Positions 35,213-56,782 of a stretch of DNA of 64,000 nucleotides are shown in pieces. The stretch comes from Candidatus Bathyarchaeota archaeon (GTDB lineage: Archaea; Thermoproteota; Bathyarchaeia; 40CM-2-53-6; RBG-13-38-9), in the NCBI GenBank assembly GCA_963807605.1, contig CAWECG010000004.1, forward strand, positions 416,001 to 480,000, written 5' to 3'. A model generated the notes under the pieces. That model was not told where the DNA came from, ran no database searches, and saw only the letters and a program-made list of their open reading frames with translations. Position numbers and translations under genes: made by a program. Positions within the stretch are counted from its first letter, which is position 1, and each line of letters begins with the position of its first letter.

Positions 35213-35867
35213 GTGGGCGAATCCCACTCCACGCACTATAGTACTGGCAAATTAGTATCCATCAACCGCGCAAGTGTGGCGATGTCATAGTATGGTTCAT
35301 TCCAATCCCTGCAATCGGACGCTTCTCGCTCTGATCCCTCGAGGCACTCGAAAATAATCAGGAGTATGTGTGCCCTAGCGGGTTAGAGCACGCGAATTTG
35401 AACTGATGGTTCTTCTTGTGCGTCTTTTGGTGAGGACACAAAAACACGAATCGTATAATAATGTGTGATATCTAAGGAATGCTGATCCTCTGTTAGAAAC
35501 TAGTGTAGTTTAGGGAATCGAACTTTATCCATACCCCGCCCGGAGCTTCATGTTACTAATTAGAGGCTTTTCCGCTCAATTATTATTCATAGTTGTTCCA
35601 GTGAGAAAGAATTTAAGCCACAAAACCGTACTATCCAGAAGAGATGCTTCTGGAATGGGTTTTTCCATGAAAAAAGAGCGGGATTTAGACCCTAATGGGT
35701 TTAAAACCCACCCGGTCCACTATTGCTTGGCTCATTTGACTCTCATGACTTCCGCCCACTATTCAAGCCCTAACCAAAGTGAATTGGCCTAACAGCTGAA
35801 CCGTTCAGATCAGTCAATCTTGATGGTATCTGACCCTTTATTTAGTCCAACACCCGCGGGTCCATTA
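35213..35867 (+). repeat. Cluster of tRNA 3'-end fragments (35213-35238 Leu-like, 35534-35550 Thr-like, 35696-35722 Ala-like, 35845-35867 degenerate)
   Basis: T-arm plus acceptor-strand patterns ending in CCA-like triplets; isotype labels inferred. Confidence 0.6.
35721..35860 (+). repeat. 140-bp direct repeat Y, copy 1
   Basis: 9 mismatches to 49698-49837 by manual count. Confidence 0.95.
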
Positions 35868-36141
35868 TGATGTACTTGTTGGACGCGCCCGAGATTGTTT
35901 TGCCAGTATTATGTGAGCCACAATTATAGCTAGACTTTGTACAGATTAACACTTCATTCAAACTATGCGTATCATAAGGGTTCCACGCGACTCCTTTCAT
36001 GTATAGACATGACATAAATGCTCAGTTGCCAAAGAACACGAGGTTTCAAAGAACGAGTGAAACGCGTCTAAGAGACACGGAGCGCACGAAGGGGGTTTAG
36101 CACAAGGAGAGTGAAGAACTACCGCCTTTTTGGTGATCCGT

Positions 36142-36657
36142 ATGGACGTCATCGTTGACGATTTGGACATTAAGATTCTCAGAGAGTACTTGAAAGATGC
36201 TCGGCTTTCATGCAGGGAGGTAGCAAGGAGGCTCCACACCTCAATCAAAACGGTTCTTGTGAGGCTTCATGAACTGGAGAAAGAAGGTGTAGTTAAAGGA
36301 TACTCAGTAGTTCTAGATTATGAGAAGCTTGACTTCACTATCACAGCCATCATTGAGGTCGTTGTCTCGAGAGGACGACTGATTGAGATGGCGGAGCAGA
36401 TCGTTAGGTTACCCAATACCATAGCAGTTTACGATGTGACAGGCGACACAGATGCAATAGTGATCTCCAAGTTCAAGAGTATGGATGACTTGAGCACTTT
36501 CACAAAGTGGATGTTGAAACTGCCCTCCATAGAAAGAATAAACACCCACGTTGTCCTGACATCCCTCAAGGAAGACCTAAGACTGGATCCGCAAGTAAAA
36601 GAAGGGCCCGCCGTAATGTTCAATAGACATCCAAATTCCCTTTGTGCTGAGCTTTAG
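36142..36657 (+). CDS. Lrp/AsnC transcriptional regulator
   Basis: DDLDIKIL..DARLS..LEKEGVVKGY, VYDVTGDTD. Confidence 0.92.
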   Translation: MDVIVDDLDIKILREYLKDARLSCREVARRLHTSIKTVLVRLHELEKEGVVKGYSVVLDYEKLDFTITAIIEVVVSRGRLIEMAEQIVRLPNTIAVYDVTGDTDAIVISKFKSMDDLSTFTKWMLKLPSIERINTHVVLTSLKEDLRLDPQVKEGPAVMFNRHPNSLCAEL

Positions 36658-36696
36658 GCATTAGCGTGTACACAAAAAACGATCAGATCACGCTAA

Positions 36697-37626
36697 TCAA
36701 TACTTCCTTATTCCACTGAAGGATGCGTTTAGTATAGTCCTCCTCGTGATGTCGACTGCCCGATAGATTGTATTCCTGATCTCGTCAGCCACCTCGCTCA
36801 ACATTCTGACCAATACACCTGAGTTGTGAGGGAGACTCGTTGCACCTCCCAAAATGTTAGGAGTTTGTTTCAGACTGGCATTTATTTCATCGACCAGTTG
36901 TTTTACGTAGTCCTGTTTTGTAATTATGTACAGACTGCCTACAACAGACTTCTCGCCGAGTATTCCCAAGGTCTTAAGGTTGAATTTCTTTGGTTCTAAT
37001 ATGAAGATGTCTGTAAATTGTATAAGATTATTCTGATTTGTCGCCTGTGTTTTCAGGTAGCAAACATCATATTCGAATGATTCACCGCTCGCGACCCTGC
37101 CAGGGGTTAATATTTCCGAATATAACGCTGTTCCGTTATCGTGGACTTTCAATGCTGTCGTTTGGTAGAACCGTGAATTGCGGTAGGGGATTATTTGGTC
37201 AGGGATGTACTCAAAATAGCAACCGTCATCTACGAAAATAGTAACGACTTGCGTGGCATAATTTCGCTCCATCCTGTATATTCTGGTTGCACCTTGAGTG
37301 GTGATATGGGCGCAAGCGTTTTTAGTTAAAGATAAGTCGATTCGATACCTATCGCCCTGCAGTATCCCGCCGGAGGCAGTCATCACATACACATACGCCA
37401 TTGAAGGGAGCGACTCTTCCAAATAGAGAGCTTTCTGAGTGAAAAGAGGCACTTTAGCGAACTGATCCTTAATCACCGTCTTTCCTATTTCAGGGTTATT
37501 TTCCAATAGAAGTACCAATGCACCTAGTTTACCAGCTCTTCCAGGCTTCAGTTGCAGCAGTTCCGATTCGTACGCCAAAATCTCAGGCGGAATATCTTCT
37601 GGCGTATAGAATTCTACATCATACAT
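36697..37626 (-). CDS. ureD: Urease accessory protein UreD
   Basis: SGGILQGD, TTQGATRIY, PGRVASGE. Confidence 0.92.
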   Translation of the reverse strand: MYDVEFYTPEDIPPEILAYESELLQLKPGRAGKLGALVLLLENNPEIGKTVIKDQFAKVPLFTQKALYLEESLPSMAYVYVMTASGGILQGDRYRIDLSLTKNACAHITTQGATRIYRMERNYATQVVTIFVDDGCYFEYIPDQIIPYRNSRFYQTTALKVHDNGTALYSEILTPGRVASGESFEYDVCYLKTQATNQNNLIQFTDIFILEPKKFNLKTLGILGEKSVVGSLYIITKQDYVKQLVDEINASLKQTPNILGGATSLPHNSGVLVRMLSEVADEIRNTIYRAVDITRRTILNASFSGIRKY

Positions 37627-37631
37627 TTCCT

Positions 37632-38294
37632 TTATCCATTCGTCACCAATTCTTTTGGAGGAGCGTCAAAGATGACGTCTCGTATTATATGTTCGACAAC
37701 TTTGTCGATATTTTGGTCTGTCTTACAGTTGATGAATAGGTATGGTTTGTCACGTCTTATCACCTTGGCATCTCGTTCCATCACTGAGAGATCCGCCCCG
37801 ACATACGGGGCAAGGTCTATCTTGTTGATAAGGAGTAGATCGCAGTTCTCTATCCCTAACCCCCTCTTCCTTGGATACTTATCCCCTCCGGCAACGTCTA
37901 TGATGTAGATGAAATAATCCGCGAGGGCCGGGCTAAAGGTGGTAGTAATGTTGTCCCCCCCGCTCTCTATGAGTATAAGATCCAATTCACTGTGTTCTGA
38001 CTCCATTTCCTCAACTAGGGATAGATTCATCGATGGGTCTTCCCGAATTGCTGTGTGAGGGCAGCCTCCTACTGCCAATCCTACTACCAAATCTTCAGGT
38101 ACTAGACCTCTTTCGAATGACAGGTTCTTTCGCATCCTATCAGCATCTTCTTTGGAGACGACGTCGTTCGAAATTATGCCTACTTTGTATCTTCTCTCTG
38201 CAAGATATGGAACGACCCGCTCTATCAGGGCAGTCTTTCCAGAACCAACAGGACCGCCGATTCCGACTCTCGGTATATGTTTCAAACTTTGCAT
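37632..38294 (-). CDS. ureG: Urease accessory GTPase UreG
   Basis: GGPVGSGKT, GGCPHTAIRED, ESGGDN, NKID. Confidence 0.95.
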   Translation of the reverse strand: MQSLKHIPRVGIGGPVGSGKTALIERVVPYLAERRYKVGIISNDVVSKEDADRMRKNLSFERGLVPEDLVVGLAVGGCPHTAIREDPSMNLSLVEEMESEHSELDLILIESGGDNITTTFSPALADYFIYIIDVAGGDKYPRKRGLGIENCDLLLINKIDLAPYVGADLSVMERDAKVIRRDKPYLFINCKTDQNIDKVVEHIIRDVIFDAPPKELVTNG

Positions 38295-38305
38295 TTTCAC
38301 AGGCC

Positions 38306-39010
38306 TCAAGTCGCAAACATTCTGACTGGTAACTCTTCATGAGCAATTTGCGCTATATCGATTACAGGGGCAAACTGCCACATATCCGACAGTTTCCTGC
38401 TGATATTCTTCTTTACGGTTTCCAATATCAGGGGTTTTAACTGATTGATTATTCTCTGGGCTTCAAAATGATCCACCATGCCCAGCCTTAGAGCTGCCCC
38501 GACGATGCTGGCGACGAAGGAATATATCAATACCATGCCAGCCCTACTCTTTGGGATTTCGAAGATGGCGCAAGCCAAAGCCAGCGCTACTGGATAGATT
38601 CCTGTGACCTGCCCGTTTTGAACGGCACTTTGATAATCGTCGAGAGCTCTGTTACCTCTAATAAATGATCCTAAACATTTCAGTACTTGTCTACCTGATC
38701 TGACTGAGGTTTCCCTAATCTCGCGGACAAGCTTCATTGAGTAAATTAGCTGATCTGCCTCTTTCAATTTCTCAAAATCAAAGTTCTTGACAAATTCGTA
38801 GGCGTTGCCAAGGACTACGCAGTCCGCAGGACCAATCTGGTTTTCAATGTATGCTTTTAGAAGATCCTGCAGCTTGTCAGCAGTCCTCACTTTCTTCTCG
38901 TAAAAAAATGTCTCAAGCCCGCTCGATGTCAAAAACATGCCGGTCGGGAAGAGTGAGTCTGAAAGTTGCAACATACTAATGTCGCATTCATTAATTTCAT
39001 CAGTGTTCAT
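38306..39010 (-). CDS. ureF: Urease accessory protein UreF
   Basis: LQLSDSLFPTG..SSGLE, AALRLG, HE....RMF. Confidence 0.92.
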   Translation of the reverse strand: MNTDEINECDISMLQLSDSLFPTGMFLTSSGLETFFYEKKVRTADKLQDLLKAYIENQIGPADCVVLGNAYEFVKNFDFEKLKEADQLIYSMKLVREIRETSVRSGRQVLKCLGSFIRGNRALDDYQSAVQNGQVTGIYPVALALACAIFEIPKSRAGMVLIYSFVASIVGAALRLGMVDHFEAQRIINQLKPLILETVKKNISRKLSDMWQFAPVIDIAQIAHEELPVRMFAT

Positions 39011-39515
39011 GCTCTTCCATTCCTTTGCTCGGTTCAAATACCATCGTTTCTTTTGTTATTTGAAGATGGTCAGATATTGGGGCAAAAAGTAAATTTAGCA
39101 TATCAATTTCGCTGTCGGCTTGAATTGGCAGGTAGATCTTATAGTCGTCAATACTTATTGGGCGATGTAGATTACCAAGAGCATGCCCTATCTTCACAGT
39201 AAGTTCAAAGCACTCATGATCTTCATGATGATCTTTCATCTGGATTACCGCTACACGCTCTGGCTCTATCTCCACAACGATCATTTTTTCTTTCTCAAGA
39301 AAAATCACATCCCCGTTCCTCATGATTGTGCCGGGTGCCAGTTGAATCCCAACATCCGTGCCTTCGTCAGTCTTCTTCCTCATCCTGATGCGCTGTGATT
39401 CCAGCCTGCTTATTCTCAGCTTCTCACAAAGATGATTCTTGCACATCGTCCTATACTTTTCATCGAGTTTCGCATCATCCTTTATGTTACCAATAACTGA
39501 TTGAGCCAAAATCAT
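39000..39515 (-). CDS. ureE: Urease accessory protein UreE
   Basis: GHALGNLH, C-terminal HEH. Confidence 0.9.
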   Translation of the reverse strand: MILAQSVIGNIKDDAKLDEKYRTMCKNHLCEKLRISRLESQRIRMRKKTDEGTDVGIQLAPGTIMRNGDVIFLEKEKMIVVEIEPERVAVIQMKDHHEDHECFELTVKIGHALGNLHRPISIDDYKIYLPIQADSEIDMLNLLFAPISDHLQITKETMVFEPSKGMEEHEH

Positions 39516-39889
39516 TTCTTATCATCTTTCTTCCGTTTTCTGGATTTGCGGAGCTTTCCCACTCGCTTTCTCATCTCGTCAAGTCTCTGTGCATAATCAA
39601 CGGATCCCAAGTGGGCAAACGCCTCTCTGTGTACGGTAGCGAATATGAATCCTTCATCTCTGAATCTGATTTTTGCTCCTCTTTCGAATTTCTCCGCGAT
39701 GATGCAGAGAGCAAGTCGGTGATCTGGAAAATCAAGGTTTAGATGCGTCAAGGTGTCAACTGGGCCGGACATGTCGTCTATCTGTTTTGCTCTGACTGTT
39801 ACATGCCGTATTCTGGTTGGATCCAAAACGTAGAGACTTTCGTTAACATTGTTGCTCTCGACGCAGTGGCGCACTAACGAGGTTTTCAC
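39512..39889 (-). CDS. Hypothetical protein within urease operon
   Basis: 4-nt overlaps with both neighbours. Confidence 0.65.
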   Translation of the reverse strand: MKTSLVRHCVESNNVNESLYVLDPTRIRHVTVRAKQIDDMSGPVDTLTHLNLDFPDHRLALCIIAEKFERGAKIRFRDEGFIFATVHREAFAHLGSVDYAQRLDEMRKRVGKLRKSRKRKKDDKK

Positions 39890-41461
39890 CTCTTGATTTC
39901 AGAGACGGCTTGAGTGGTAAGTTCTTCTGCAGCCAGGTTCCTGTCAATCCGTAGAACGGATTTGGCTATTTCTCCTGCAGACTCTAGAGCAGTTGTCTTG
40001 ACTAGAAGAGGGTCAATAATGCCTCTTTTCCACATGTCTATTAATTCGCCGCTCTCTATGTCTATGCCAAAACCTTCTGGCGATGCTTTCACAGCCATGA
40101 CTTTTTCAAGCCCGTTGAAACCGGCATTTGTCAGTATCTGACGCATTATGCTCTCAAGTGCCGCAATCACGACATCGAGGCCAATACTTTCCAAACCTTT
40201 CAAGTTAACATTCTTGACTTTTTTTATTAAGTGAAGTTCTGCAGCGCCACCACCGGCGACAACTCCTGTGTTCAGAGCTGCTTCAGCAGCATTGACGCCA
40301 TCTCTAGTGGCCCTCCACCTTTCAAGGGATGTTTCTTTTGTTGCCCCAGATATGATGATGGTAACTATGTTCTTGCCTGACCCATTTTCTATGTATACTA
40401 CACCTTCCTTCTCGTCCTCATAGATGCGGTCTGCTTCCCCCAGGATGTCGGGTTGCTTTAGGTCTTCAAGCATTCTTACCAGCTTTGCGCGTGTATGCCG
40501 TGCTAGGTGTTCTATCTCATCTGTGGAAATTCGGATTGCGAACACTTTGTTCTTGATAAGCAAATTCTCAATGAACTCATCCACCTCGGGAGATGCGATA
40601 AGAAGGGTGTTGACGCCGGTGGCTAGGATTTCATTCACTATTTCTTTCGATTTTCTGATTCGGTCATTTTCCATAGCGGCTATATCGTCATATTTGTTGC
40701 TGTCTTTCATCCATTGTTCTTTGATAGGCTTCAGGTCAAGCTTGCACAACATTATCTTTGGAGTTTTGACCTCCTTGGGCATATCAACGTCCATTCTCTT
40801 TCTTTCCAAGACGATGCCATCGACGACTCTATCCTTCATATTCAGTTTCCTAATGACCATTACAGCCTTGTCGAAGTCATATTTCCCGTCAAATAATGCG
40901 TTATCACCAATAGACCTTATTGCGGATATTACTAAGGGCGCGAGTATTTGTCCATCCAGTTTTGATGCTAAGGAAGTTCTAACAACTTGTTCGAGCTCAA
41001 TTTCATTTATCTTGATTCTTTTTTGCTTCTTCTTCCATCATCTTACAGGCATACTTTACTCCGCTATCTATGCCGCCGACGATCTTTGATGGATGGACCC
41101 CCAGTTCTTTTATGAATTTTTTACCTTCCTTAATCATTTCTGCGGCCATGACTACTGCCGTAGTGGTGCCATCGCCGACCATTTCTTCCTGTCTTTCCGC
41201 TATCTCCACAATCATCCTTGCTACAGGATGTATCGTCTTCAGGGAGAGAAGGATTGTTACTCCATCATTAGTGACGTGTCTGTTCAAAGTCTGATCTATG
41301 AGGAGTTTATCCAGTCCTTTGGGGCCCAAAGTTGTCCTAACTGTTTCAGCTACAGCTACTACGGCATTGCAGTTGGACTCTAGAGCGTCCATCTCCACAT
41401 TTTGAGCCACAGGCCGCCAAACACTATGACCTGGACTAGACACCATTATCCCCCTTTCCAT
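39886..41461 (-). pseudogene. Thermosome-like (Cpn60/TCP-1) chaperonin split by a +1 indel at T6 (41019-41024)
   Basis: TTLGPKGLDK, TNDGVTIL, GDGTTT, GGGAAE, IIDP..VK; removing one base joins both ORFs into ~524 aa. Confidence 0.85.
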
Positions 41462-41524
41462 TAGGAAATAGGTACTTAAAAAAAGGAGTGCGCGCGTAGG
41501 CGCGCATATGTTTGATCGGGTATG

Positions 41525-43252
41525 TCACGCCATGAAGTACCTTTGGGCCAAGGCTAGCTCTTTCGCCGGTTCTACTGTAGCAATCTCTCCGTCAAGTCTT
41601 ACCTCGTAGGTTTCAGGGTCTACTGTTATCTTGGGAGTACTATCGTTCCACACCATGTTCTTCTTGCCTATGTTCCGGCAGTTCTTTACTGGCAATATGA
41701 CCTTTTCGAGTCCTAACTTTTGAGGCACTCCAAGCTCTGCGGCTGCTTTTGATATGAATGTGAAGCTAGTTTTCTTTACTGCCCGACCGAGTGCACCGAA
41801 CATTGGTCTGTAGTAAACCGGCTCCGGAGTTGGTAGGGACGCATTCGGATCTCCCATTATAGACCAAGCTATGAATCCTCCCTTGAAGATCATCTTTGGT
41901 TTCGCTGCAAAGAAGGGCGCCTGATACATTACTATATCTGCGTACTTACCGACTTCAAGGGAGCCGAGATATTCTGCAACACCATGAGTGATTGCTGGGT
42001 TTATTGTTGTCTTTGCGATGTACCGCTTAGCTCTAAAGTTGTCGTTCTCCGGGGAGTCTTCCTTCAGCTTGCCGGTCATCTTTTTCATCTTGTCCGCAGT
42101 CTGCCAGCAACGGATTACTACCTCCCCAATCCTACCCATAGCTTGACTGTCTGCGGAGTACATGCTCAAGACACCTTTATCATGCAGAACATCCTCTGCA
42201 GCGATTGTTTCGGCTCTGATTCTGGATTCTGCAAAGGCGACATCCTCTGATACCGCAGGATTCAGGTGATGACAGAACATCAACATGTCCAGATGCTCAT
42301 CCACTGTATTGACAGTATAAGGTCTTGTCGGGTTTGTTGAAGAAGGAAGTACGTTTGGCTCTCCTGCTATCTTCATAATATCGGGCGCGTGACCTCCGCC
42401 AGCTCCCTCTGTGTGGTAGGTGTGTATTGTTCTACCGTCGATCGCATTTATCGTGTCCTCGACGTAACCGCATTCGTTAATCGAGTCGGTGTGTATCGCC
42501 ACTTGTGTATCCGTGAGGTCCGCTGCTCTAAGCGAAGCGTCTATAACTGCGGCGGTTGTCCCCCAATCCTCATGGTCTTTAAGACCGCATGCTCCAGCCT
42601 CTATCTGTTCCAGCTGAGTGGCGAGTGTTGGGTGTGAGTCGTTGCCTTTGCCCAGGAAGCCCCAGTTCATCGGTGTATCCTCTACAGCTTCCAACATTCT
42701 ATGCATGTTAAAGACGCCAGGAGTACATGTAGTAGCGTTGGTACCGTCTGCAGGCCCGGTTCCTCCACCGATCATATTGCATATTCCATTACTTATCGCG
42801 TCGACGTATTGCTGTGGGCTTATCATGTGAACGTGTGTATCAAAATGACCTGGAGTGCAGATTGTATGTTCCCCGGCGGTGGCTTCCGTACATGCCGAGA
42901 CTACCATGTGAGGATCAACGCCATCCATTACATTGGGATTGCCGCCTTTTCCAATCCCTGCTATTTTGCCGTCTTTTATCCCGATATCGGCCTTCAGGAT
43001 TCCCAGGATAGGATCTAGTATGATGGAATTGGTGATTATGAAATCCAAAGCCCCATTCGCATTTGTAACTCCTGGCGTTTGGCCTAGTCCATCTCTTATT
43101 GTCTTGCCTCCACCGAAGACCTCCTCGTCTCCGTGGGTTATCAGATCTTTCTCTATCTCGATGAGTAGGTCTGTGTCACCTAGTCTTACTTTATCTCCGG
43201 TTGTGGGCCCATAAAGATCACTGTACTGTTTTCTTGTTAGTTTCAAAACCAT
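41525..43252 (-). CDS. ureC: Urease alpha subunit
   Basis: [39 protein letters not shown]. Confidence 0.97.
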
Positions 43253-43258
43253 TTTTCT

Positions 43259-43675
43259 TCACGCTCCTTTGAAGTCTAGTTTCTTCGCCTTTTCAAGAGC
43301 GGCGGACTTGACTGTACTTGACAGTAGACTGCCCATCGTTAGTGCATTGAATCCGTAGACAACCTTCTTGCCGCCTAATTCGCAGATCTCAACTTCTTTT
43401 GAGTCACCCGGCTCAAACCTTACAGCTGTTCCTGCCGGGATATTCAGTCTATACCCGAATGTTTGTCCTCTTGGGAAATCGAGTTTCTTGTTTACCTCGA
43501 AGAAATGCGTGTGGGAGCCTATCTGTATTGGCCTGTCACCGGTGTTCTTCACCGTAATCTTAATGGTCTTTCTATCTTTGTTGCAGATGACTTCTCCGGG
43601 AGCTAGAACGTATTCGCCCGGTAGGACGTGTGTTGGGTGTTCCTCTTTCCTTTTTTCTTCTTTCTGCTTACTCAG
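43259..43675 (-). CDS. ureB: Urease beta subunit (probable CTG start)
   Basis: LPGEY..NTGDRPIQIGSHTHFFEVN..PAGTAVRFEPG; conserved PGEY lies upstream of the ORF-track GTG. Confidence 0.92.
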   Translation of the reverse strand: MSKQKEEKRKEEHPTHVLPGEYVLAPGEVICNKDRKTIKITVKNTGDRPIQIGSHTHFFEVNKKLDFPRGQTFGYRLNIPAGTAVRFEPGDSKEVEICELGGKKVVYGFNALTMGSLLSSTVKSAALEKAKKLDFKGA

Positions 43676-43686
43676 ATTTCATCACC

Positions 43687-43989
43687 TTACTGAATAGGAT
43701 CGTGTACGGTCACAAGTTTGGTGCCGTCTGGGAACGTGCCTTCTACTTGTACAGTGTGTATTAGCTCAGAGACACCGGACATTACATCGCCTCTTCTTAG
43801 TACGGTTCTTGCGGATTGCATCAGTTCTGCAACGCCTTTTCCCTCACGAGCGCCCTCGACTATGTAGCTTGCAATGAAAGCGACCGCTTCCGGGTGATTC
43901 AGCTTTATTCCTTTCTTCTTGCGTTGTTCTGCTATTTGTGCCGCTGTCCAAATCATCATTTTTTCAATTTCTCTTGGAGCCAACATCAT
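43687..43989 (-). CDS. ureA: Urease gamma subunit
   Basis: [23 protein letters not shown]. Confidence 0.97.
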
Positions 43990-44138
43990 TTTATTTTCTC
44001 TCTCCTAATTTTATTTTCTCTCTCCTATTTTCATCCTGACTTTTACGCTCACCTTTCATTTGGAAATTTCTTCTCGATTCGAAATCATCTCAGTATTCTT
44101 TTGTAGTTTGTATCCATCTCCTCATGGCGCAGCACTTG

Positions 44139-45875: not shown

Positions 45876-45896
45876 CAAGTCCCGGCGGCCGCACCA
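45876..45896 (+). repeat. tRNA-Gly-like 3' fragment CAAGTCCCGGCGGCCGCACCA
   Basis: 1 mismatch to 49667-49687. Confidence 0.85.
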
Positions 45897-46041
45897 CTCT
45901 AGCAATGAATAGATACAACTTGCCCCCATACTTGCTATTGCTTGCAGGTTTTCATATCGTTCAGAATGGAGAGTTGGACTATGGGTGGCTCTGTAGGCAA
46001 ATTAGCGCGCTTGTCCTGTCAGTTTTTTTGTCAGTCCCACT

Positions 46042-47612: not shown

Positions 47613-47636
47613 GGTATATAAGAGGGGGAAGAGATT

Positions 47637-47674
47637 ATATAAGTTTGAACCTATATATCAGTTCGGACTTATAT
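47637..47674. promoter_or_regulatory. 38-bp imperfect palindrome overlapping the divergent pdxS / thrC-padR promoter region
   Basis: ATATAAGTTTGAAC-N10-GTTCGGACTTATAT (12/14 arm match); TTATATAA at 47635-47642. Confidence 0.7.
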
Positions 47675-49139
47675 GGTTCTGCTATGTTCAGATTGTGGCG
47701 TCAATTACGCGGACTCTGAGGCGCTCAGGGTCTGCCGAAGATGCGGGCAGCCTCTATCGGTAACCTATGACTACGACAAGATCAGGGAGACACTTAGCAT
47801 CAAAGAGATCTCCAAGAGACCTTTTCGGCTATGGAGGTATCTCGAACTGCTGCCCATCACAGAGGAGGCTCATGTGATCTCACTGGGCGAGGGCGGAACC
47901 TACCTGCATAGATGCGATAGGCTCGCCAAATCATTGAGGTTAAAGAAGCTATACTTGAAAAATGAGACCACCAACCCTACTGGCTCATTTATGGATCGGG
48001 GCGTAACGGTCACTGTCACCAAGGTTAAACAAACAGGAATCAGAACCGTCTGCTGTGCCCCAACAGGGAATCTTGGCTCCTCCCTAGCAGCCTACGCAGC
48101 CAAAGCAGATCTAGAATGTAGAGTCTTCATCTCACATGAGGTGGACCTTGGTAAGCTCTACCAGATGATAGCCTTCGGTGCCGATGTCCAGACCGCCAGA
48201 GACATAGACGATGCATATCAAAAGGCCACTAGGATCGCTGATAAGAGCTACTTGGTAACCCCAGAAGATCCATACCTCCTCGAGGGAGAGAAGACTATAG
48301 GATATGAAATATGTGAACAACTCGATTGGCACACACCAGACTTGATAGTAGTTCCAATGGGAAGCGGCGGAAACCTCTCAATGATCTGGAAGGGAATTCA
48401 GGAATTCCTCCAAATCGGCTTAATCCGGAATAGTCATGCAGCCATGGTCGGCATTCAGAGCTCAAGCCACTCACCGATAGTAGACGCCTTCAAGGGCGCT
48501 CGTAAACTAGAAAAATCCAAGGGAGAAGGAAGATCTTTAGCTGTTGACATAGCTGTCAAGAATCCCGCTCTTGGAGACGCAGCCTTGAAGGTGATAGAGG
48601 CCTCAAAAGGCATAGCAACAAGCGTCTCCGACAACGAGATTCTAGAAGCAACACGATTACTTGCAAAGACAGAAGGGATCTTCGCCGAACCTGCTGCAGG
48701 CTCCACAATTGCCGGGCTTACGAAACTGGTAGAGTCTGGAGAGGTGGCCAGAGACCAAGAGGTCGTCTGCATAATAACAGGCTCAGGGCTCAAAGACCCT
48801 TACACCGCCCGTAAGTTTGCAGATGAAATGAAGCGTACTCGCAAACTCGTAAACAGTATCGACGAAGGTAGGGATGTCAGGCTCGGCGGTACAAAAATGA
48901 ACATCCTCAAGATCCTTCAGAATAGAGAACTTTATGGTTATGGCATATGGAAGGAGCTGTTAACTTATCATTCGAAAAAAGTCACCATGCCAACAGTGTA
49001 TCAACATCTACAAGAGATGGAGATGCGGGGATTGCTCAAACGTACAAGAAGAGAGGAATCAGTGGGAAGACCAGACCGCTGGTATTACATCCTAACAGAG
49101 AGGGGCAGGGAGGCTCTAAAAGCCTTCAGCAGACTATAG
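47673..49139 (+). CDS. Threonine-synthase-like fold-II domain (catalytic Lys replaced by Met) fused to C-terminal PadR-like wHTH
   Basis: SLGEGGT, NPTGSFMDRG (canonical SFKDRG), EGIFAEP, TGSGLKD; then ILKIL..YGYGIWKEL..PTVYQHL..LE..GLL..YYILTERGRE. Confidence 0.85.
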   Translation: MVLLCSDCGVNYADSEALRVCRRCGQPLSVTYDYDKIRETLSIKEISKRPFRLWRYLELLPITEEAHVISLGEGGTYLHRCDRLAKSLRLKKLYLKNETTNPTGSFMDRGVTVTVTKVKQTGIRTVCCAPTGNLGSSLAAYAAKADLECRVFISHEVDLGKLYQMIAFGADVQTARDIDDAYQKATRIADKSYLVTPEDPYLLEGEKTIGYEICEQLDWHTPDLIVVPMGSGGNLSMIWKGIQEFLQIGLIRNSHAAMVGIQSSSHSPIVDAFKGARKLEKSKGEGRSLAVDIAVKNPALGDAALKVIEASKGIATSVSDNEILEATRLLAKTEGIFAEPAAGSTIAGLTKLVESGEVARDQEVVCIITGSGLKDPYTARKFADEMKRTRKLVNSIDEGRDVRLGGTKMNILKILQNRELYGYGIWKELLTYHSKKVTMPTVYQHLQEMEMRGLLKRTRREESVGRPDRWYYILTERGREALKAFSRL

Positions 49140-49344
49140 CACCTGATCCAATAGAGAATATCGAGGGTCAGTATCACGTCGGGCCGCCCAAGGTCAGACA
49201 GCTCAGACTCAAATGTCGAATGTTATGTTATGAACCTCAATTTCAACCCAATTTCCTCAACAAAAATGCTCTGGGCCCGGTTCGAACATCAGAGGTATGA
49301 ACCCGCGTGAATTTTGAGCCCAAATCTAGCACCGTTAACGCATC

Positions 49345-49442
49345 GAATCCCGTCGGGCTCGCCAACAATAATCGATAAAAATTGTGGCATAATAACGGCG
49401 ATTGTGGTCTACAGGCAATTCAGGTATTCGCACCTAATAAGG
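49345..49442 (+). repeat. 98-bp direct repeat X, copy 1
   Basis: 11 mismatches to 56662-56759 by manual count. Confidence 0.95.
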
Positions 49443-49697
49443 GGTGCATACCGGCGGCTGCACCATTCTAGCGGTTCACAGTATCATCTGTAGACAAGAT
49501 TCCTGAACCTAAACAATTCGCCTTCGACACGGCTGTGAAAGTGTGAATCCCGCCCGGTCCACCATTCTGCACGTTCCGAATGAAAACGGTCTTTTTACGC
49601 ACTATCTTGGAGCTGTGGAAGAGCCACTTGCGAGAGGTAGATAGTTCTTATTCATATCTAGCTAATCAAATCCCGGCGGCCGCACCAATGATTTTTG

Positions 49698-49837
49698 TAT
49701 TGCTTGGTTCATTTGACTGTCATGACTTCCGCCCGCTATTCGAGCCCTAACCAAAGTGAATTGGCCTAAATGCTGAACCGTTCAGATCGGTCAATTTTGA
49801 TGGTATCTGACTCTTTATTTAGTCCAACACCCGCGGG
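49698..49837 (+). repeat. 140-bp direct repeat Y, copy 2
   Basis: Matches 35721-35860. Confidence 0.95.
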
Positions 49838-49854
49838 CCGGCAATTCTCAGTGC

Positions 49855-50700
49855 CTACGTGCTACCGTCTTCTGTTTCAGATCTTTTCGTATGCTGAAGG
49901 GTGGCCATCTTGAGGCGGGACGTCATTTTTCTCAGTTTCTCCGTTGTCCTAATGGGTGATCCATGATTCTGCTCAATCACTTTGACAAACACGCTTCCAA
50001 CGATAGCCCCATCAGCTCCAGCTGCCACAATCTCTCTGATCTGTTCAGGGGTTGATATTCCAAAGCCGGTTGCAAGTGGAATCTCGTCCCTTATGTAGGA
50101 ACGAAACTCCTTAACTAACCTCACAGTCGAATCTGGGAGCCTTCTCCTGGCTCCAGTTACACCAAAGAGTGAGACTAAGTATAGAAAACCTGATGTGTAT
50201 TTCAGGATTTCCTGCAGTCTTTCCGCTGTGGTGGAGGGTGCTGCGAGAAATATTGTGTCGATCTTGGCTTCATCAGCGATCCTCTTGTAAGTGTCTGCCT
50301 CTTCAAAGGGCAGATCAGGGATTACTATCCCGTCAACCCCATTCATCTTTGCTAGTTCCAAGAAATTCTTCAGTCCGCTTTTGTAGATTATGTTATAGTA
50401 GGTCAGAAGTACGACGGGGATCCTGTGTTTTTCCTTGATCTTCTTTACGATCTTCATGACCAGTGGGGGCTTGGTTCCGGCTTTCAATGCTCTGACTGTT
50501 GCAGCTTGAATCGTCGGCCCATCCGCAATTGGATCAGAGAATGGGATGCCAAGTTCAATTACGTCTGCACCTCCTTCAACTAGAGCATCCACAATTCTAG
50601 GAGTGAATTTTGGAGATGGATCGCCCGCGGTCACGTACGTGATCAGCGCGGCCTCATTCCTCTCGCTCAGATCTCTGAAGGTTTCTGCAATAATGGTCAA
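49855..50700 (-). CDS. trpA: Tryptophan synthase alpha
   Basis: [28 protein letters not shown]. Confidence 0.96.
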
Positions 50701-51896
50701 AGTCTTCGCCCCATTCTTCCAGCCACAACCTCCACATCCTTGTCACCTCTTCCTGAGATTGTGACCACGACACCTTCTTCGCTGTTCATCTTGGGTACTA
50801 TCTTCTTCATGTGTGCTAGCGCATGGCATGTCTCCAAAGCTGGAATAATCCCCTCTGTCCTGGAAAGCTCACAGAAGGCTTCCAGGGCCTCTTTGTCTGT
50901 GGCTGTGGCATACTCGACACGCCCTATACTGTGAAGATAGGAGTGTTCTGGGCCGACTGCTGGGTAGTCGAGGCCTGCAGAGACACTGTGGGTTGGCTGT
51001 ACCTGGCCATAGGCGTCTTGGAGAAGATAGGTTAGCATGCCATGGAATACCCCCTCTGACCCTGCACAGATTGAGGCTGCATGCTTTCCAGTCTTAATTC
51101 CTCTTCCTCCGGCCTCGACGCCATACATCTTTACGTTGTCATCATTAAGGAAGTGGTGGAATGTTCCTATGGCGTTGCTGCCGCCTCCAACGCATGCGAA
51201 GAGTGCGCTAGGTAACTTCTTCTCCTTCAGCAGGATCTGTTCCTTGATCTCCTTTCCAATGATACTCTGGAGGTCTCTTACGATCATTGGGTAGGGGTGA
51301 GGTCCTACCGCTGATCCAATCAAGTAGTATGTTGTCTGGGGGTTGGTCGTCCAGTCTCGGAGGGCCTCGTTTATCGCATCCTTCAGTGTCCTTGAACCCG
51401 AATCCACAGGGTGGACCTTCGCCCCGAGTAGCTCCATGCGGAAGACATTGAGCCTCTGCCTCTTCATATCCTCGGTTCCCATGTAGATCTCCGCATCCAG
51501 ACCTAGGGTAGCGCATGCTATCGCCGTGGCCACTCCATGCTGGCCTGCGCCGGTCTCCGCGATAACCCTCTTCTTGTTCATCCTCTTGGCCAGGAGAGCT
51601 TGACCTAGTGTGTTGTTGATCTTGTGGGCTCCTCCGTGAGCCAGATCTTCCCGTTTCAGATAGATCCTTGGGCCCCCGTACCTGCTGGATAGATTCTTGG
51701 CATAGTAGAGGGGTGTCGGTCTGCCAGCGAACTCTCTTAGATAATGGTCGAGCTGGTTCTTGAAATCAAGGTCCTCCTTGAAGCTAAGGTATGCATCTTC
51801 CAGCTCGCTGAGCACAGACATCAGAGTCTCAGGTACAAAGCGTCCTCCATACTTACCGAATTTGCCCTTGAACAAATTGGCCTGTTGCAGGTTCAA
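50697..51896 (-). CDS. trpB: Tryptophan synthase beta (TrpB1)
   Basis: [30 protein letters not shown]. Confidence 0.97.
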
Positions 51897-52537
51897 TATG
51901 CAGCCTCCCTAGCTTTCCTGATGAACTCGGTCATCTTCTCAGGATCCTTAACCCTAGGACGCACCTCGACCCCCGTTGAGACATCGACCCCGTATGGCCT
52001 AACCGTACTTATCGCGTGGCCGACATTCTCTGGAGTGAGCCCTCCGGCAAGAATCATGGGTGCCGGGTATATTGCGTCCCTGATTTTTCTGCTTAAACTC
52101 CAGTCGTGTACAAGGCCTGTCCCTCCACGACCAGTCTGATCATGGGTGTCTACCAATACGGCTTGAGAGAATCTCGAGTATGACAGAGCTTGTTCGATCG
52201 CATCAAGCGCTCCAACATCAACAGCTACTATTACCTTGACTCTTGATGCCAAACCATTCCGGCGATACGATTCAGAAGCCACTCCATGAAGTTGTAGGAA
52301 TTTTGGAGCCAGCTCTTGGCAGATCTCCGCGGTTCTTTTTATTCCGTTGAAGACCGTCACTACCACGCTGTCCACGTTGCTTGGCAATCGGTCTATCAGG
52401 TTCTTTGCTTCTCTGAAAGAGAGATTTCTCGGTGATGCGGCTATGTCGACAATGAATCCTATGGAATCAACACCGGCCTGGACAGCTATATCCAAATCTT
52501 CCTGTTGAGTTACTCCGCAGATCTTTACTTTCACCAT
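51893..52537 (-). CDS. trpF: Phosphoribosylanthranilate isomerase
   Basis: [30 protein letters not shown]. Confidence 0.95.
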
Positions 52538-52543
52538 CTGGAT

Positions 52544-53317
52544 CTATGCCTCCGCCAGCTCCCGGACTTTCTCTTCAGGGTTGAGAGCTGACATGATGGA
52601 TGATCCAACTAGGAAAGCACTCGCTCCACACTCTCTGAGGAAACGAACATGATCTCCGGTGTCGATTCCACTCTCACTCACGACAACATGGTTGCTTGGG
52701 TGGCGTGAACTCAATATCTTCCTTGTGACATCCAGATCTGTCTGCAGGGTCGAGAGATCTCGATTGTTTATTCCAATGAGGTCAGCCTCGGTGCTGAGAG
52801 CTCTTTCGAACTCTTCTGTGGTATGGGCCTCAAGCAGAATCTCCATACCTCTGTCATGCGCTAGATCTATCGTTCCTTCAAGATCGTTATCGCATAGGTT
52901 TCTCTCGAAGAGAGATTCGATCAGCAGTATCGCTTCAGCTCCGATCCTGGATGCGGCTTCAACCTGGATTGGATCGACGATTATGTCTTTCATGAGCCGC
53001 GGAAGGCCACATCTACGCGCGGTTATGAGGTATTCAGTTCTGCCTCTGAAGTGTTTCGGCTCGGTCAAGATCGATAAGCCGACTGCACCACCCAGTTTCA
53101 TCATCGACGCCAAAGCTTCAACGTTAATGTTCTGAGTGATGATCCCCTTCGAGGGTGAGGCGGGTTTGATCTCAGCTATTACTGGATTCCTCTTGCATTT
53201 GAGAATCGACTCTTTGAGCCCCATGCCGACTCTCTCATGAGATTGCTCAATATGATAGTAGCCTTCCGCAACGGTCTCTCTGGCATCCCTTGCCAGGATA
53301 TCTAGATAGTCACGCAG
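52544..53317 (-). CDS. trpC: Indole-3-glycerol phosphate synthase (probable CTG start)
   Basis: IAEIKPASPSKG, GINNRDL, SESGI; frame open upstream of ATG 53224 to CTG 53317. Confidence 0.93.
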   Translation of the reverse strand: MRDYLDILARDARETVAEGYYHIEQSHERVGMGLKESILKCKRNPVIAEIKPASPSKGIITQNINVEALASMMKLGGAVGLSILTEPKHFRGRTEYLITARRCGLPRLMKDIIVDPIQVEAASRIGAEAILLIESLFERNLCDNDLEGTIDLAHDRGMEILLEAHTTEEFERALSTEADLIGINNRDLSTLQTDLDVTRKILSSRHPSNHVVVSESGIDTGDHVRFLRECGASAFLVGSSIMSALNPEEKVRELAEA

Positions 53318-54368
53318 TTATCTCCAGCTCCTCAAGTCTCGACAGGTTGCCGCCAGTGAACTCGATCAGCGAGACGAGTTTTCCGTAAGCTGCACCGCTC
53401 TCAATTGACTGGGCAGCGAGCTCGAGGCCTTCTTCGAAGCTTTCTGCTTTCCCTCCGACTACGATGCCTGCGGCTGCATTGAGTAGTACTATGGCTTGCT
53501 TGGGATCCCTGTGGGTACAGTGGCCTCTCATAATCCTAAGAGTCGCCACCGCGCTCTCATGGGTAGTTGAGCATCGCAGCGCCTCGGGTTTGGCTTTCTC
53601 TATACCAAAGTCCTCTGGCTCGATCGTGAAGCTGCATATCTCATCCTCTCTTAACCAAGAGATCTTGGTCCCTCCGACTGTGGAGACCTCGTCTAAGCCG
53701 TCGAGGCCGTGCACAACCATTGCTTGCTTGACACCAAGGTTTGAAAGTACGCTCGCTAGTGGTTCGGTCAAGGATTCTTGGTATACACCCAGAAGCTGGG
53801 CTGTTACGTTGGCCGGATTGGTCAGAGGACCCAGAATGTTGAACACTGTTCTGATCCCGATCTGACTCCTAGGGTTGACTGCATACTTCATTGCTGGGTG
53901 AAATGCTGGAGCGAACATGAATCCAATCCCAACCTCCTCTATTGCTTTCTCCACCGTCTCTGTTGGTATGTTGAGCCTGAGCCCCAGGGTCTCCAGAACG
54001 TCGGCGCTTCCACATCGGCTTGTCACAGACCGGTTCCCATGCTTTGCAACAGGTATGCCTGCGCCAGCGATGACAAAGGCGGACACTGTACTGATGTTGA
54101 ATGTCTTGACCTGATCGCCGCCTGTTCCACATGTGTCGACTAGGTTGCCTGCAACTTCAGGGTTAATCCGGTGGCAACAGCTTCTCATTACTCTTGCAAG
54201 TGATGTGATCTCGTCTACGGTCTCACCCTTCATCCTGAGGGCTGTCAGGAATGCGGCGATCTGTGCGTCTGTGGCTTTGCCCTCCATGATCTCCTGCATG
54301 ACCTCCCGTGCCTCTTTCTGTGTCAGGTCTCTTCGCTCAACGAGTTTTGCAATGGCTTCCTTAATCGT
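53310..54368 (-). CDS. trpD: Anthranilate phosphoribosyltransferase (probable ACG start)
   Basis: DTCGTGGD, NIST, KHGNR; upstream in-frame IKEAIAKLVERRDLT with GGAGGT SD. Confidence 0.93.
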   Translation of the reverse strand, partial: TIKEAIAKLVERRDLTQKEAREVMQEIMEGKATDAQIAAFLTALRMKGETVDEITSLARVMRSCCHRINPEVAGNLVDTCGTGGDQVKTFNISTVSAFVIAGAGIPVAKHGNRSVTSRCGSADVLETLGLRLNIPTETVEKAIEEVGIGFMFAPAFHPAMKYAVNPRSQIGIRTVFNILGPLTNPANVTAQLLGVYQESLTEPLASVLSNLGVKQAMVVHGLDGLDEVSTVGGTKISWLREDEICSFTIEPEDFGIEKAKPEALRCSTTHESAVATLRIMRGHCTHRDPKQAIVLLNAAAGIVVGGKAESFEEGLELAAQSIESGAAYGKLVSLIEFTGGNLSRLEELEITA

Positions 54369-54954
54369 CTCGGTAACCTCCGTCTAGGAAGTTTCTGAGA
54401 ATTCTTTTTCCTTGGTTGGTCAGGATAGACTCCGGATGGAACTGTAGGCCCTCGATTGGGTACTTGGTGTGGCGAATACCCATTATTTCGCAATCATCAA
54501 GAGAGTAGGCTGTTGCCTTCAAACAGTCTGGGAGCGAGAACAGATCAGCTACGAGGGAGTGGTATCTGGTGGCCTCAAGTGGATTTGGTGTGTCTCGGAA
54601 GATCCCTTTTCCGTCATGTTTTATCAGGCTGGTCTTGCCGTGCATCAGCCTCTGTGCTCTGATGATCTTTCCTCCAAAGGCATGTACGATCCCTTGATGC
54701 CCAAGGCAGATACCTAGTGTTGGTATGTGTCTGCTTAGATCTCTCAGGATGGCCAAGCAGTTGCCGAAGTATCGGGTTTCTGCTGGTGTTCCAGGTCCAG
54801 GGGAGAGAATCACTCTGTCGGGGTTGAGTCGTCTTGCCTCTCCTAGAGTCACCGTGTTGTTTCTGTGGACAACTGGTGTTCCGCCAAGTTCACCGACATA
54901 CTGTGCGATGTTGTATACGAATGAGTCATAGTTGTCTATTATCAGGACTTTCAA
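54361..54954 (-). CDS. trpG: Anthranilate synthase component II
   Basis: IDNYDSF, SPGPG, GICLGHQ, QFHPES. Confidence 0.95.
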   Translation of the reverse strand: MKVLIIDNYDSFVYNIAQYVGELGGTPVVHRNNTVTLGEARRLNPDRVILSPGPGTPAETRYFGNCLAILRDLSRHIPTLGICLGHQGIVHAFGGKIIRAQRLMHGKTSLIKHDGKGIFRDTPNPLEATRYHSLVADLFSLPDCLKATAYSLDDCEIMGIRHTKYPIEGLQFHPESILTNQGKRILRNFLDGGYRDD

Positions 54955-56373
54955 ATCATTTCACCCGCCTTCTCCAAGGCCTTCATGAGAGCCGCGGCTT
55001 TTTGTTCTGTTTCAAACCATTCTTTCTCGGGGTCTGAGTCAGCCACTATCCCTGCGCCTACTTGGATTGAGGCTTTATTCTGATGGGTTGTCAGGGTACG
55101 GATGGTTATGGCAAAGTCTGCGTTTCCGTTGTTCGAGAAGTATCCGACGGCGCCCGCGTATGGTCCTCTTCTTGTGGGTTCAAGTTCCTCAATTATCTCC
55201 ATGGCTCTGACTTTCGGTGCTCCTGAGACAGTTCCGGCGGGGAGCATGGCTTTGAGTGCGTCAAAGCAATCCATGTCTGGACGTATCTTTCCGACGACTC
55301 TGGAGACGATGTGTTGGACATGACTGTATTGGTGTACAGTCATGAATTCAGGTGTGTGGACTGACCCAAACTCAGCTATTCTGCCGATGTCGTTCCGTGC
55401 CAGGTCTACAAGCATCACATGTTCAGCCCGCTCCTTCGGGTCTGAAAGCAACTCTTCAGCCAAGATCTGGTTCTTGGCTTGATCGTCGGTTCTTGGTCTG
55501 GTCCCGGCTATCGGATAGGTCTCCACGAGACCATTTTCAACTCTCACAAGCATCTCAGGACTTGAACCTACGACCTGTCTTTCTCCCATTTTGAGAAAAT
55601 ACATGTATGGGGATGGGTTGATGTTTCTCAACGTTCTGTAGAAGTTGATGAGGCTGCCCTCGAAGTTGAAGTTATAACGTTTTGAAAGGACTGCCTGGAA
55701 GATGTCTCCCGAAGAGATGTAGTTCTTGGCTTTCAAAACAGCCTCTTGAAAGTCGTCTTTTGAAGTATTCGATGTTGGGGTGGTGTATCTGAAGGGTTCT
55801 GGATCGGTGATGGCCTCTTGGATTCTGCTTTTGATCTCTGCCAATCGATCCCTGTTTTGAAAGTAGTAGTATGCTGTTCTGTTGATGTGATCGAAGACTA
55901 TCCCATCGTCAAAGAACGCCATCTCGAGATCTGGGAACTTGAGATCATCGGTGGCGGATTCCGGAATCTTTTCCCAGTACCTTACCGCATCATACGAGAT
56001 GTATCCTACGGCACCACCTGCGAGACGAAACTGGTCGAATGTTAAATGATTCCTCTGAATCTCACTTCGCATGATGTCAAGTGGATTGTGCGTTTCTTGG
56101 CATTCGTCTCCTGATGTCATGCTAGTGGTTCTTGCCACATGTCCTTTGACAGAGATCACTAGGTGTGGGTCAAACCCTATGAACGAGAACTTCGCCAGTT
56201 TTTCCGGGCCTTCAACTGACTCTAGAAGATATGTGTACCCGCTGTCTCCCTCAAGTCTTGCAAAGATATCTGCTGGCGTGTCGGTGTAGGGGATCTCTTC
56301 AAGATTGACCTTAGGCGATTTTCTGGAAGTTGGCTCCTCTAGTCTTGAGGTTTGTCCAAAGGCGATACCCCAT
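54951..56373 (-). CDS. trpE: Anthranilate synthase component I; N-terminus lacks an in-frame canonical start
   Basis: NPSPYM, SSPE, PAGTVSGAPK; conserved YLLES..FIGFDP lies upstream of the ORF-track start; nearest ATG (56373) is one base out of frame. Confidence 0.9.
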
Positions 56374-56381
56374 TTACGCTA

Positions 56382-56410
56382 GTCCCCTGCATATCTGATG
56401 CATTAGGGAC
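56382..56410. promoter_or_regulatory. Inverted repeat just downstream of the putative trp TATA box
   Basis: GTCCC-c-TGCAT-atctg-ATGCA-tta-GGGAC; TTAAATA on - strand at ~56421-56427. Confidence 0.5.
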
Positions 56411-56660
56411 ACACGAGTTCTATTTAAGGTTAGTGAGTACACTATTGTACATCTATATGCCTCACAACTTGAGAAGACCGACCATTATGTGCTTGACAGG
56501 ACAGAACACGAACACTGAAGCCTGTCCTCACGGTCCAATCGCACGCTGCTGAGAAAATCCGGCATAGTCAGAAAGTTCCTTCGCGGAGCTTGAAAGTGTA
56601 AGTTCGAATTATAGGAGAAAAAAATCAATTTTGAGCTCGGTCATGGCAACTATAACGTTA

Positions 56661-56782
56661 CGAACCCCGTCGGGCCCGCCAACGGTAATCGATACAACTT
56701 GCGGCATAATAACGGTCATTGTGGTCTGTAGGCAATTCAGGTATTCGCACCTAATAAGGCTCGAGTACCCGCGGGCCCGCCA
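56661..56782 (+). repeat. Repeat X copy 2 between two tRNA 3' fragments (56661-56681; 56758-56782 = candidate attR)
   Basis: CGAACCCCGTCGGGCCCGCCA and GGCTCGAGTACCCGCGGGCCCGCCA. Confidence 0.88.

Follow-up and report, generated by a model that had tools for sequence, protein, structure and literature searches.

Introduction

Several described systems bear on the locus reported here, a 33-kb region downstream of a tRNA-Arg gene in a Candidatus Bathyarchaeota genome, in which two short repeats, X and Y, lie among orphan copies of tRNA 3' ends. Cis-mobilisable elements (CIMEs), known in connection with ICESt1 and ICESt3 of Streptococcus thermophilus, are reportedly stretches of integrase-less DNA bounded by attachment (att) sites that lie beside an integrase-bearing element, and their mobilisation is presumed to take place in cis or in trans. 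In the tycheposon islands of Prochlorococcus a tyrosine recombinase lies beside a tRNA gene, newer elements push older ones inward, and partial tRNA copies and decayed elements are left scattered (Hackl et al., bioRxiv 10.1101/2020.12.28.424599); the cargo of these islands consists of nutrient-acquisition operons carried as plug-in blocks (bioRxiv 10.1101/2020.12.28.424599). For archaea, a survey of Thaumarchaeota described elements integrated in the 3' portion of tRNA genes, some of these genes with introns; the att repeats are short, many elements are cryptic, and one element may piggyback inside another (PMC6563490). The tRNA-targeting pTN3 integrase of Thermococcus nautili is described as also recombining sites other than its own att pair and so reshuffling the chromosome (PMC5495485).

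The window, by which we mean the whole 64,000-nt stretch of DNA that was analysed, corresponds to contig C4:416001-480000 of an assembly of 2.65 Mb (label G000; 5 contigs; 47% G+C), and coordinates without a contig name are those of the window. Proteins homologous to those of the window carry the names Bathyarchaeota or Thermoproteota. Comparisons were made within a set of 105 genomes of the order, this one included, the relatives being labelled G001, G002 and so forth. We read positions 23601-56782 as a 33-kb composite island that accreted at a tRNA-Arg(GCG) gene in the manner of a tycheposon or a CIME, with X and Y as arm modules without cargo, and we give this reading a probability of roughly 60%. 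An earlier examination of the same DNA (the original prediction) had proposed that X and Y may be minimal non-autonomous elements with recombinase arm sites and that recombination crosses over in the T arm between unlike tRNA tails.

Results

The window contains a single tRNA gene, located at 23601-23696 on the plus strand, which matches the Rfam tRNA model at 41.7 bits and carries a 17-nt intron in the anticodon stem. Manual parsing gave the anticodon loop CTGCGAA and a 5-nt variable loop, and both this parse and an intron-aware ARAGORN run identify the gene as Arg(GCG); the Leu(CAA) call of an intron-blind run was accordingly rejected. Several further tRNA calls in the genome change identity when introns are allowed. 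The 3' end of this anchor tRNA would serve as the attB/attL core. Forty-seven nucleotides after the gene begins a tyrosine-type site-specific integrase of 508 aa (23744-25270, plus strand) with more than 1000 homologues, several of them labelled "site-specific integrase" by NCBI, and with 57-65% identity maintained across hundreds of these. Residues R157, K202, R279, H306 and Y314 are invariant. A 20-member profile of the family gave a weak match to Pyrococcus XerA (4A8E) in the catalytic region (E = 0.094), and no match was returned by Pfam, PHROGs, NCBIfam or a single-sequence PDB search. Paralogues or fragments of the integrase adjoin four other tRNA genes of the genome, and one paralogue heads an intact 23.6-kb element (C4:65889-89485) that has a 28-nt attL/attR pair.

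Copies of tRNA 3' ends (tails) were sought throughout the genome with the final 16 nt of each tRNA type, allowing at most two mismatches and with CCA obligatory. The tRNA genes themselves, about 35 in number, nearly all with an encoded CCA and many with introns, were counted by our own search for T arms and acceptor stems; ARAGORN run without introns reported few tRNAs in the genome, and more once introns were permitted. The scan yielded 83 tail sites, 53 of which lie outside tRNA genes, compared with 10 in a reversed-genome control. Five of the 53 were recognised as genuine tRNA genes (four of them having T-loop introns and one a complete T arm), and their removal, together with that of one unreliable site, left about 47 orphan tails. 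The T-loop introns that mimic orphan tails measure 13-37 nt and occur in the tRNA genes at G000 C4:91990, C4:224105, C4:321632 and C3:273315. Orphan tails begin within the T loop and run to the CCA over 22-23 nt, and each is preceded by a recognisable arm. One tail type, CCCGCCCGGTCCACCA, was assigned by manual reading to tRNA-Ala (G3:U70; anticodons CGC, TGC and GGC). Tail ends on the plus strand of the window lie at ~35238, 35720, ~35866, 45896, 49364, 49465, 49564, 49687, ~49843, 56681 and 56782, and on the minus strand at 26138. Elsewhere in the genome, at G000 C3:577100-577480 and C3:162300-162600, three unlike tails are stacked with a spacing of 80-110 nt, one of these stacks ending in a (GC)n run.

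The arms fall into families. The family-1 arm has 25 copies in the genome (nhmmer), joined to Lys-, Ala-, Gly- and second-Lys-type tails, and was found by BLAST with one copy as query in 8 of the 105 genomes, which belong to three families, at 79-96% identity. A second arm family consists of ACTGGTGCGCGAAT followed by a Leu/Ser-type tail and has about 10 near-identical copies genome-wide. In this family ACTGGTAAACTGGTGCGCGAAT joined to the Leu/Ser-type tail CCCACTCCCCGCACCA often stands behind a TATA-like run, the copies in the window being at ~35209-35238 on the plus strand and 26138-26167 on the minus strand. Of the 47 orphan tails, 15 have a GAACC box 58-78 nt ahead of the tail end; the box is so placed in none of the 30 tRNA genes compared and at 2% of random sites, and it is common to family-1 arms, unit C (described below) and Y. 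We regard the arms as element-derived sequence at attR-type joints because of three comparisons. The arm before the first Y copy, with its Ala/Ile-like tail (35649-35720, plus strand), is homologous to the attR arm of the intact 23.6-kb element (86% identity over 72 nt to C4:89412-89483); in G007 a segment behind the orthologous tRNA-Arg is closed by a family-1 arm and an Arg tail with G007's own tRNA sequence variant; and in G002 an integrase fragment follows a family-1 arm and tail. Three other proposals about the units were rejected. A T-loop-like box 7 nt past the tail, present after integrase-flanked tRNAs, is not a general mark of orphan tails, since only 2 of 32 have it; a viral origin found no support, as the family-1 arm and Y patterns are absent from IMG/VR; and a split integrase gene with the att core in frame, as in SSV-type "suicidal" integration, does not fit units that no long frame crosses and an integrase gene that is whole.

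Units ending in CCA in a genome where many true tRNA genes have odd introns, the T loop included, could in principle be functional RNA, whether split tRNA halves, tRNA-like processing signals or small RNAs, and ARAGORN did call the reverse complement of one unit tRNA-like. We consider this explanation highly improbable. The units lack the 5' strand of the T stem, and a 5' acceptor partner was not seen save for a possible match upstream of the first X copy; for the same reasons, and for want of Rfam or ARAGORN support, we rejected the idea that the units are split halves or tRNA genes interrupted by large introns. No unit matched Rfam, the arms folded no better than shuffled sequences (z = 0.2 to 1.8) with the exception of the arm before the first Y copy, and the alifold consensus structure across 19 aligned units was empty. 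The units are crossed by no reading frame, none longer than 131 aa being open through any of the 19 arm-plus-tail units.

Within the 33 kb between the tRNA-Arg gene and the Arg tail at 56782, the tails fall exactly at operon borders, with 12-270 nt between a tail and the end of the operon. Their order along the island is Arg-like, Gly, Lys, Gly-variant, Ala, Gly, Arg-like, Lys and Arg. Copies of the 3' end of the anchor tRNA itself delimit segments at 35841-35866 and 49818-49843, where they are degenerate, and at 56760-56782, where the last 15 nt are identical. Following the integrase, block A (25271-35648) carries ORFans, a VRR-NUC protein and a PolB-exonuclease fragment as well as the two Leu/Ser-type tails, which are inverted with respect to each other, 9.1 kb apart, and stand beside a 28-nt inverted repeat (26239-26266 and 35378-35405). 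Block B (35867-45830) comprises an AsnC regulator (36130-36657, plus strand) and, on the minus strand at 36697-45194, ureD-G-F-E, a split chaperonin, ureC, ureA and a urea transporter, all assigned with Pfam, and is closed by an arm with a perfect Gly tail (45831-45896, plus strand; 73% similar to the arm of unit D, and a tail that agrees with tRNA-Gly ends at 19 of 19 positions). The chaperonin of the urease operon, of thermosome type (39886-41461, minus strand), occupies two frames of 152 and 324 aa, indicating a frameshift or a broken gene. An Rfam match to 5_ureB_sRNA (42804-43102, plus strand; 45.5 bits) lies antisense to the urease genes and is probably conserved coding sequence and not the Helicobacter small RNA.

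Block C (46042-49139) holds pdxT and pdxS on the minus strand and a thrC-like-PadR fusion gene on the plus strand (Pfam), and is closed by a family-1 arm with a Lys-type tail (49279-49364, plus strand). Four modules without cargo then follow in a row before block D, namely the first X copy (X1), unit C (49466-49564, plus strand, perfect Ala tail), unit D (49565-49687, plus strand, perfect Gly tail) and the second Y copy (Y2). Block D (49855-56159, minus strand; Pfam) is the trp operon (trpA, trpB, ..., trpD, ..., trpE), closed by a decayed family-1 arm with a Lys-type tail (56596-56681, plus strand; nhmmer E = 7e-12) and then by the second X copy (X2). All urease, pdx and trp cargo genes are single-copy in the genome. 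The repeats therefore stand in the order Y1, X1, Y2, X2, with Y bracketing the urease and pdx genes and X the trp genes, exactly as had been described.

The two Y copies, at 35721-35860 and 49698-49837, are 94% identical across 140 nt, in agreement with the original prediction, which had also rightly placed an Ala-like tail before Y1 and a Gly-like tail 10 nt before Y2. The Ala-like tail adjoins Y1 directly and the Gly tail before Y2 is perfect. Examined by segment, the body is identical at 111 of 120 positions (92%) and the terminal Arg-like tail at 81%, and both flanks fall to 40-50%. Each copy terminates in a degenerate Arg-like tail (35841-35866 and 49818-49843) with 2 and 4 mismatches plus a common 4-nt insertion, so that the complete modules span 35721-35866 and 49698-49843, both on the plus strand, the second ending 12 nt from the trpA stop. 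The left edge of Y is thus 0 or 10 nt past a tail end, and its right edge falls within the acceptor part of the decayed tail. Y1 has a GGCTCA box near its left end, and the GAACC box of Y, 60-70 nt ahead of the tail end, forms the left half of the Y palindrome (35796-35808 and 49773-49785). A third copy was not found in the genome; none of the other 104 genomes of the order yielded Y, nor did metagenome contigs contain an exact 21-mer from it.

The two copies of Y in everything searched, with their degenerate tails and heterogeneous breakpoints, are what one would expect if X and Y were passive relics, that is, local intergenic duplications that carry old att scars, or products of homologous or microhomology recombination between 20-nt tails, with no part for an integrase and no present role; the plentiful dispersed tails could provide such microhomology. 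We nevertheless hold this to be quite unlikely. Both repeats are bounded by tails on both sides, Y has the positioned GAACC box of the arm families, and the X arm, as described next, is conserved in other populations, where it is always linked to a tail. Moreover, the blocks that lie between the copies are unrelated, and there is therefore no larger segmental duplication.

For X, the repeat finder reported 157 nt at 78% identity (49310-49466 and 56627-56783), whereas the original prediction had given 98 bp at ~89%. The repeat is real, although division into arm, tail, spacer, tail and flank shows the spacer to be 78 nt long (49365-49442 and 56682-56759) and 88% identical (69 of 78), with a Lys-type tail preceding it in both copies. 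Identity between the copies behaves as a step function: 59% in the left arm, 86% in the Lys tail, 88% in the spacer, 57% in the right tail and 49% beyond, the last value being the background of such alignments, and the difference between arm and spacer is significant (Fisher p = 5e-5). For X and Y alike, identity drops to background at tails, as had been predicted, and this stepwise fall leads us to regard both as discrete modules with their edges on tRNA tails. The right edge of X coincides with the left edge of a tail, and the tails there were correctly labelled beforehand. X1 (49365-49465, plus strand) consists of the 78-nt spacer ending in the conserved arm GGTATTCGCACCTAATAAGG and a Gly-variant tail (49443-49465), and X2 (56682-56782, plus strand) of the spacer, the conserved arm and an Arg tail (56760-56782) whose final 15 nt equal the end of the anchor tRNA. 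We read X2, on these grounds, as the probable outer attR of the entire island.

The terminal ~20 nt of X, GGTATTCGCACCTAATAAGG, represent a third arm type, further copies of which occur at C2:544-590 and C3:577267-577296 and in 7 metagenome contigs, while the 20-mer was absent from species-representative genomes. In all seven contigs the X arm is joined to an Arg tail, and at least four different kinds of DNA adjoin it on the left. Five of the seven have a conserved flank of 75-128 nt after the X arm and Arg tail, followed by divergence, and one contig has this flank twice. In one of the sequences (L072, ~7200-7370, minus strand) a C-terminal remnant of a Pfam-type phage integrase (…YLGWVGDSRMASTYVHLSG…) directly follows the joint of X arm and Arg tail, and this remnant has 83% DNA identity to a broken integrase at G000 C2:56897-57058. 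The proposed count of copies and their flanking tails thus gave a consistent result: all other copies of the X terminal arm are associated with tails and similarity stops there, in the way expected of modules and not of an ordinary duplication, whereas for Y the same comparison rests on two copies. Both palindromes were located in both copies (that of X at 49422-49435 and 56739-56752), and we rejected them as recurrent sites, given that the exact forms occur nowhere outside the X and Y copies themselves and that the left half-site of X varies among AGGT, GGGT and TGGT in the 11 copies.

An Arg tail follows the X arm in 10 of these 11 copies, including X2, C3:577296 and the decayed C2 copy, and the sole exception is X1. 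The tail of X1 is a Gly variant, ACCGGCGGCTGCAC, which is also found just upstream of the X arm in two metagenome contigs, and the break in X1 lies exactly where tRNA identity starts, at the T-loop edge of the core. Because the X arm otherwise recurs joined to the Arg tail, the Gly-type tail of X1 would represent a swap at the T-loop edge. Williams reportedly set out in 2002 the expectation that tRNA-targeting integrases cross over at the T-loop end of the identity block. A single exchange between unlike tails in X1 is well supported by this arrangement of sequences, which is the best single support for such an exchange. The predicted T-arm crossover therefore agrees with X1, while the breakpoints of the repeats as a whole lack one fixed position, and it does not agree with Y: were crossover always in the T loop, Y would have retained one left tail, and the left tails of the two copies differ.

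Comparison with relatives showed that the linkage of the lysyl-tRNA synthetase (LysRS) gene with tRNA-Arg is kept through the family and that the content downstream is different in every genome (e.g., G001, G004, G007 and G020). The cdhD pair lies 9 kb past the tRNA in G020 and 36.5 kb past it in this genome. Behind the orthologous tRNA-Arg of G007 lie 7.5 kb without an integrase, whose genes code for a glycosyltransferase, a GH130 enzyme, an octopine-dehydrogenase-like protein and a major facilitator superfamily transporter. Contigs of metagenome-assembled genomes end less than ~1 kb past LysRS-tRNA-Arg in 5 of 9 family genomes (G001, G002, G006, G008 and G009; L052-L057), which suggests repeated or variable DNA at the site in all of them. 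The cargo is likewise patchy in its distribution. UreC occurs in 2 of the 105 genomes, the other being G090, which belongs to a different family and whose protein is 86% identical; PdxS is present in 7 of the 16 genomes of the family, and TrpA in 9 of the 17 relatives in which it was sought. The urease operon of G090 (L065, G090:C5:2772-12977) lies behind a tRNA whose 3' end recurs 2.8 kb downstream, and in it a urea-transporter fragment stands beside a full transporter gene. The pdxT-pdxS genes and the divergent thrC-like-PadR fusion gene are kept as a three-gene unit in G002, G005, G011 and G013 (at least four other genera; L066, L068, L069 and L070), among unrelated neighbours.

The 82 nt of unit C between its Gly and Ala tails recur at 98% identity in G008, a member of another genus in which the unit lies between other arms in an unrelated context, against a background of 73-77% identity for coding DNA between the two genomes. 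Such apparent mobility raises the possibility of an active, integron-like cassette platform in which the arm and the T-loop core act as the analogue of attC, and in which operon-size and empty cassettes are routinely excised, re-inserted and swapped by an integrase family that accepts sites whatever tRNA supplied the acceptor part, the modules then not being products of decay. The preservation of unit C across genera with different neighbours would fit this, as would the X1 tail swap exactly at the T-loop edge of the core, the conserved arm-core-flank joint with variable DNA on either side in metagenome contigs, the joining of one arm family to four tail types, the match of tails to functional module borders, and the unusual conservation of the integrase family over hundreds of homologues. 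We treat the platform as a tentative alternative of low probability, given that the arms have no conserved fold, that many tails are decayed, that the cassettes would be whole operons with their own regulators, and that cassettes of 100 bp are too small for circularisation; in addition, the integrase lies within the first block and has several copies at different tRNAs, as ordinary element integrases do. In its strongest form, which seems to us possible but unlikely, the alternative would amount to a Bathyarchaeia gene-cassette system based on tRNA tails, integron-like with different parts, that swaps operon-size and empty cassettes across tRNA identities and genomes. Its enzymes would be the conserved tyrosine recombinases of ~450-500 aa, which would recognise the arm (GAACC box and terminal motif) together with the T-loop edge of any tRNA-derived core.

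Discussion

Under the preferred reading, that of a composite accretion island, the region would have been built by tRNA-targeting elements of the Bathyarchaeia integrase family, one member of which lies directly after the tRNA. It would constitute a chain of blocks, the right end of each being an attR-type joint made up of an element-derived arm and a 22-23-nt tRNA 3' end. The four large blocks would carry, in order, the integrase and ORFans, the AsnC regulator with urease and urea transporter, pdxST with thrC-PadR, and the trp operon, and X, Y, unit C and unit D would have the same build without cargo, consisting of just ~80-150 nt of core-flanking sequence. We propose that the two copies of Y reflect two consecutive blocks terminating in one Arg-type arm module, and that the two copies of X reflect two blocks with a common terminal pair, made up of a family-1 arm with its Lys tail and then the X arm. 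This reading is favoured by the integrase next to the tRNA, the tails at operon borders, the patchy cargoes, the differing content at this tRNA in relatives, and the usual pairing of the X arm with Arg tails. The joints may have been made by the integrase or by its paralogues acting in trans. The Gly, Lys and Ala tails could have arisen by two routes: the blocks may first have been assembled at other tRNA genes, or exchange may have occurred at the T-loop edge, the T-loop/T-stem part being near-identical among tRNAs (AATCCCG in Lys, Ala and Gly). The proposal of X and Y as minimal elements holds to the extent that both are short non-coding modules between att-type tails with arm-like features (the GAACC box in Y and the terminal arm in X). 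Their pattern is mostly explained more simply by related elements with the same arms than by repeated crossovers in place.

Several observations weigh against an accretion island. If elements had inserted one after another at a single tRNA, every tail should be of its type, and the internal tails also include Gly (45896 and 49687), Lys (49364 and 56681), Ala (49564), Ala/Ile-like (35720) and Gly-variant (49465) types; the mixed tails in the island are only partly explained. Family-1 arms in other parts of the genome mostly lack a cognate tRNA gene in their vicinity, and cargo-less modules of ~100 bp are not the product of any standard integrase reaction. The Y tails are degenerate, the positions of breakpoints relative to tails are not uniform, and the likeness of Y to the arm after the anchor tRNA is an 8-nt match only. 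Finally, the integrase is assigned through its motif, the names given to homologues by their source and one weak profile match, and not through a family model.

If the reading is true, urea use, vitamin B6 synthesis and tryptophan synthesis would be plug-in blocks placed between integrase docking scars in Bathyarchaeia, which would help to account for the patchy metabolism that has been described in this abundant group of sediment archaea. The mixed tails and the cross-genus arm families also provide concrete substrates for asking whether an archaeal integrase joins unlike tRNA sites. Should such joining take place, the rules of tRNA-targeted integration would be wider than described so far, and islands would have a means of exchanging modules.

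Tycheposons are the closest described system, sharing with this locus a tyrosine recombinase adjacent to a tRNA, stacked elements, scattered partial tRNAs and nutrient operons. They differ in that each of their islands involves one tRNA, whereas Arg, Gly, Lys and Ala tails occur together here, and in that the present host is an archaeon with an integrase of another family, with chains of ~100-nt cargo-less units and with no replication module seen. CIMEs and the cryptic elements of Thaumarchaeota rank next in closeness. CIMEs resemble the locus in that integrase-less, att-bounded DNA is kept beside an integrase-bearing element; they are kilobases long with like att sites on both sides, whereas X and Y measure ~100-150 nt and have unlike tails. 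The elements of Thaumarchaeota are single, with matching attL and attR, and lack arrays of unlike tails and conserved arm families (PMC6563490). The pTN3 enzyme produces large inversions between any similar segments (PMC5495485), and the Bathyarchaeia enzyme belongs to another integrase family.

Integrons provide a further comparison, as they too present an array of modules with differing recombination sites beside an integrase, and empty or non-coding cassettes exist among them. We rejected an identity with integrons, there being no IntI-type enzyme (the enzyme of this locus matches nothing in Pfam or NCBIfam, is encoded within the first block and has paralogues at other tRNAs) and no hairpin-forming attC, as the arms fold no better than shuffles. 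The present modules differ further from integron cassettes in comprising whole operons in either orientation, with tRNA 3' ends as the sites. Three features of this locus do not figure in the descriptions of tycheposons, CIMEs and archaeal elements considered here: tails of four different tRNAs combined in a single island, empty modules arranged in chains, and arm families shared across genera.

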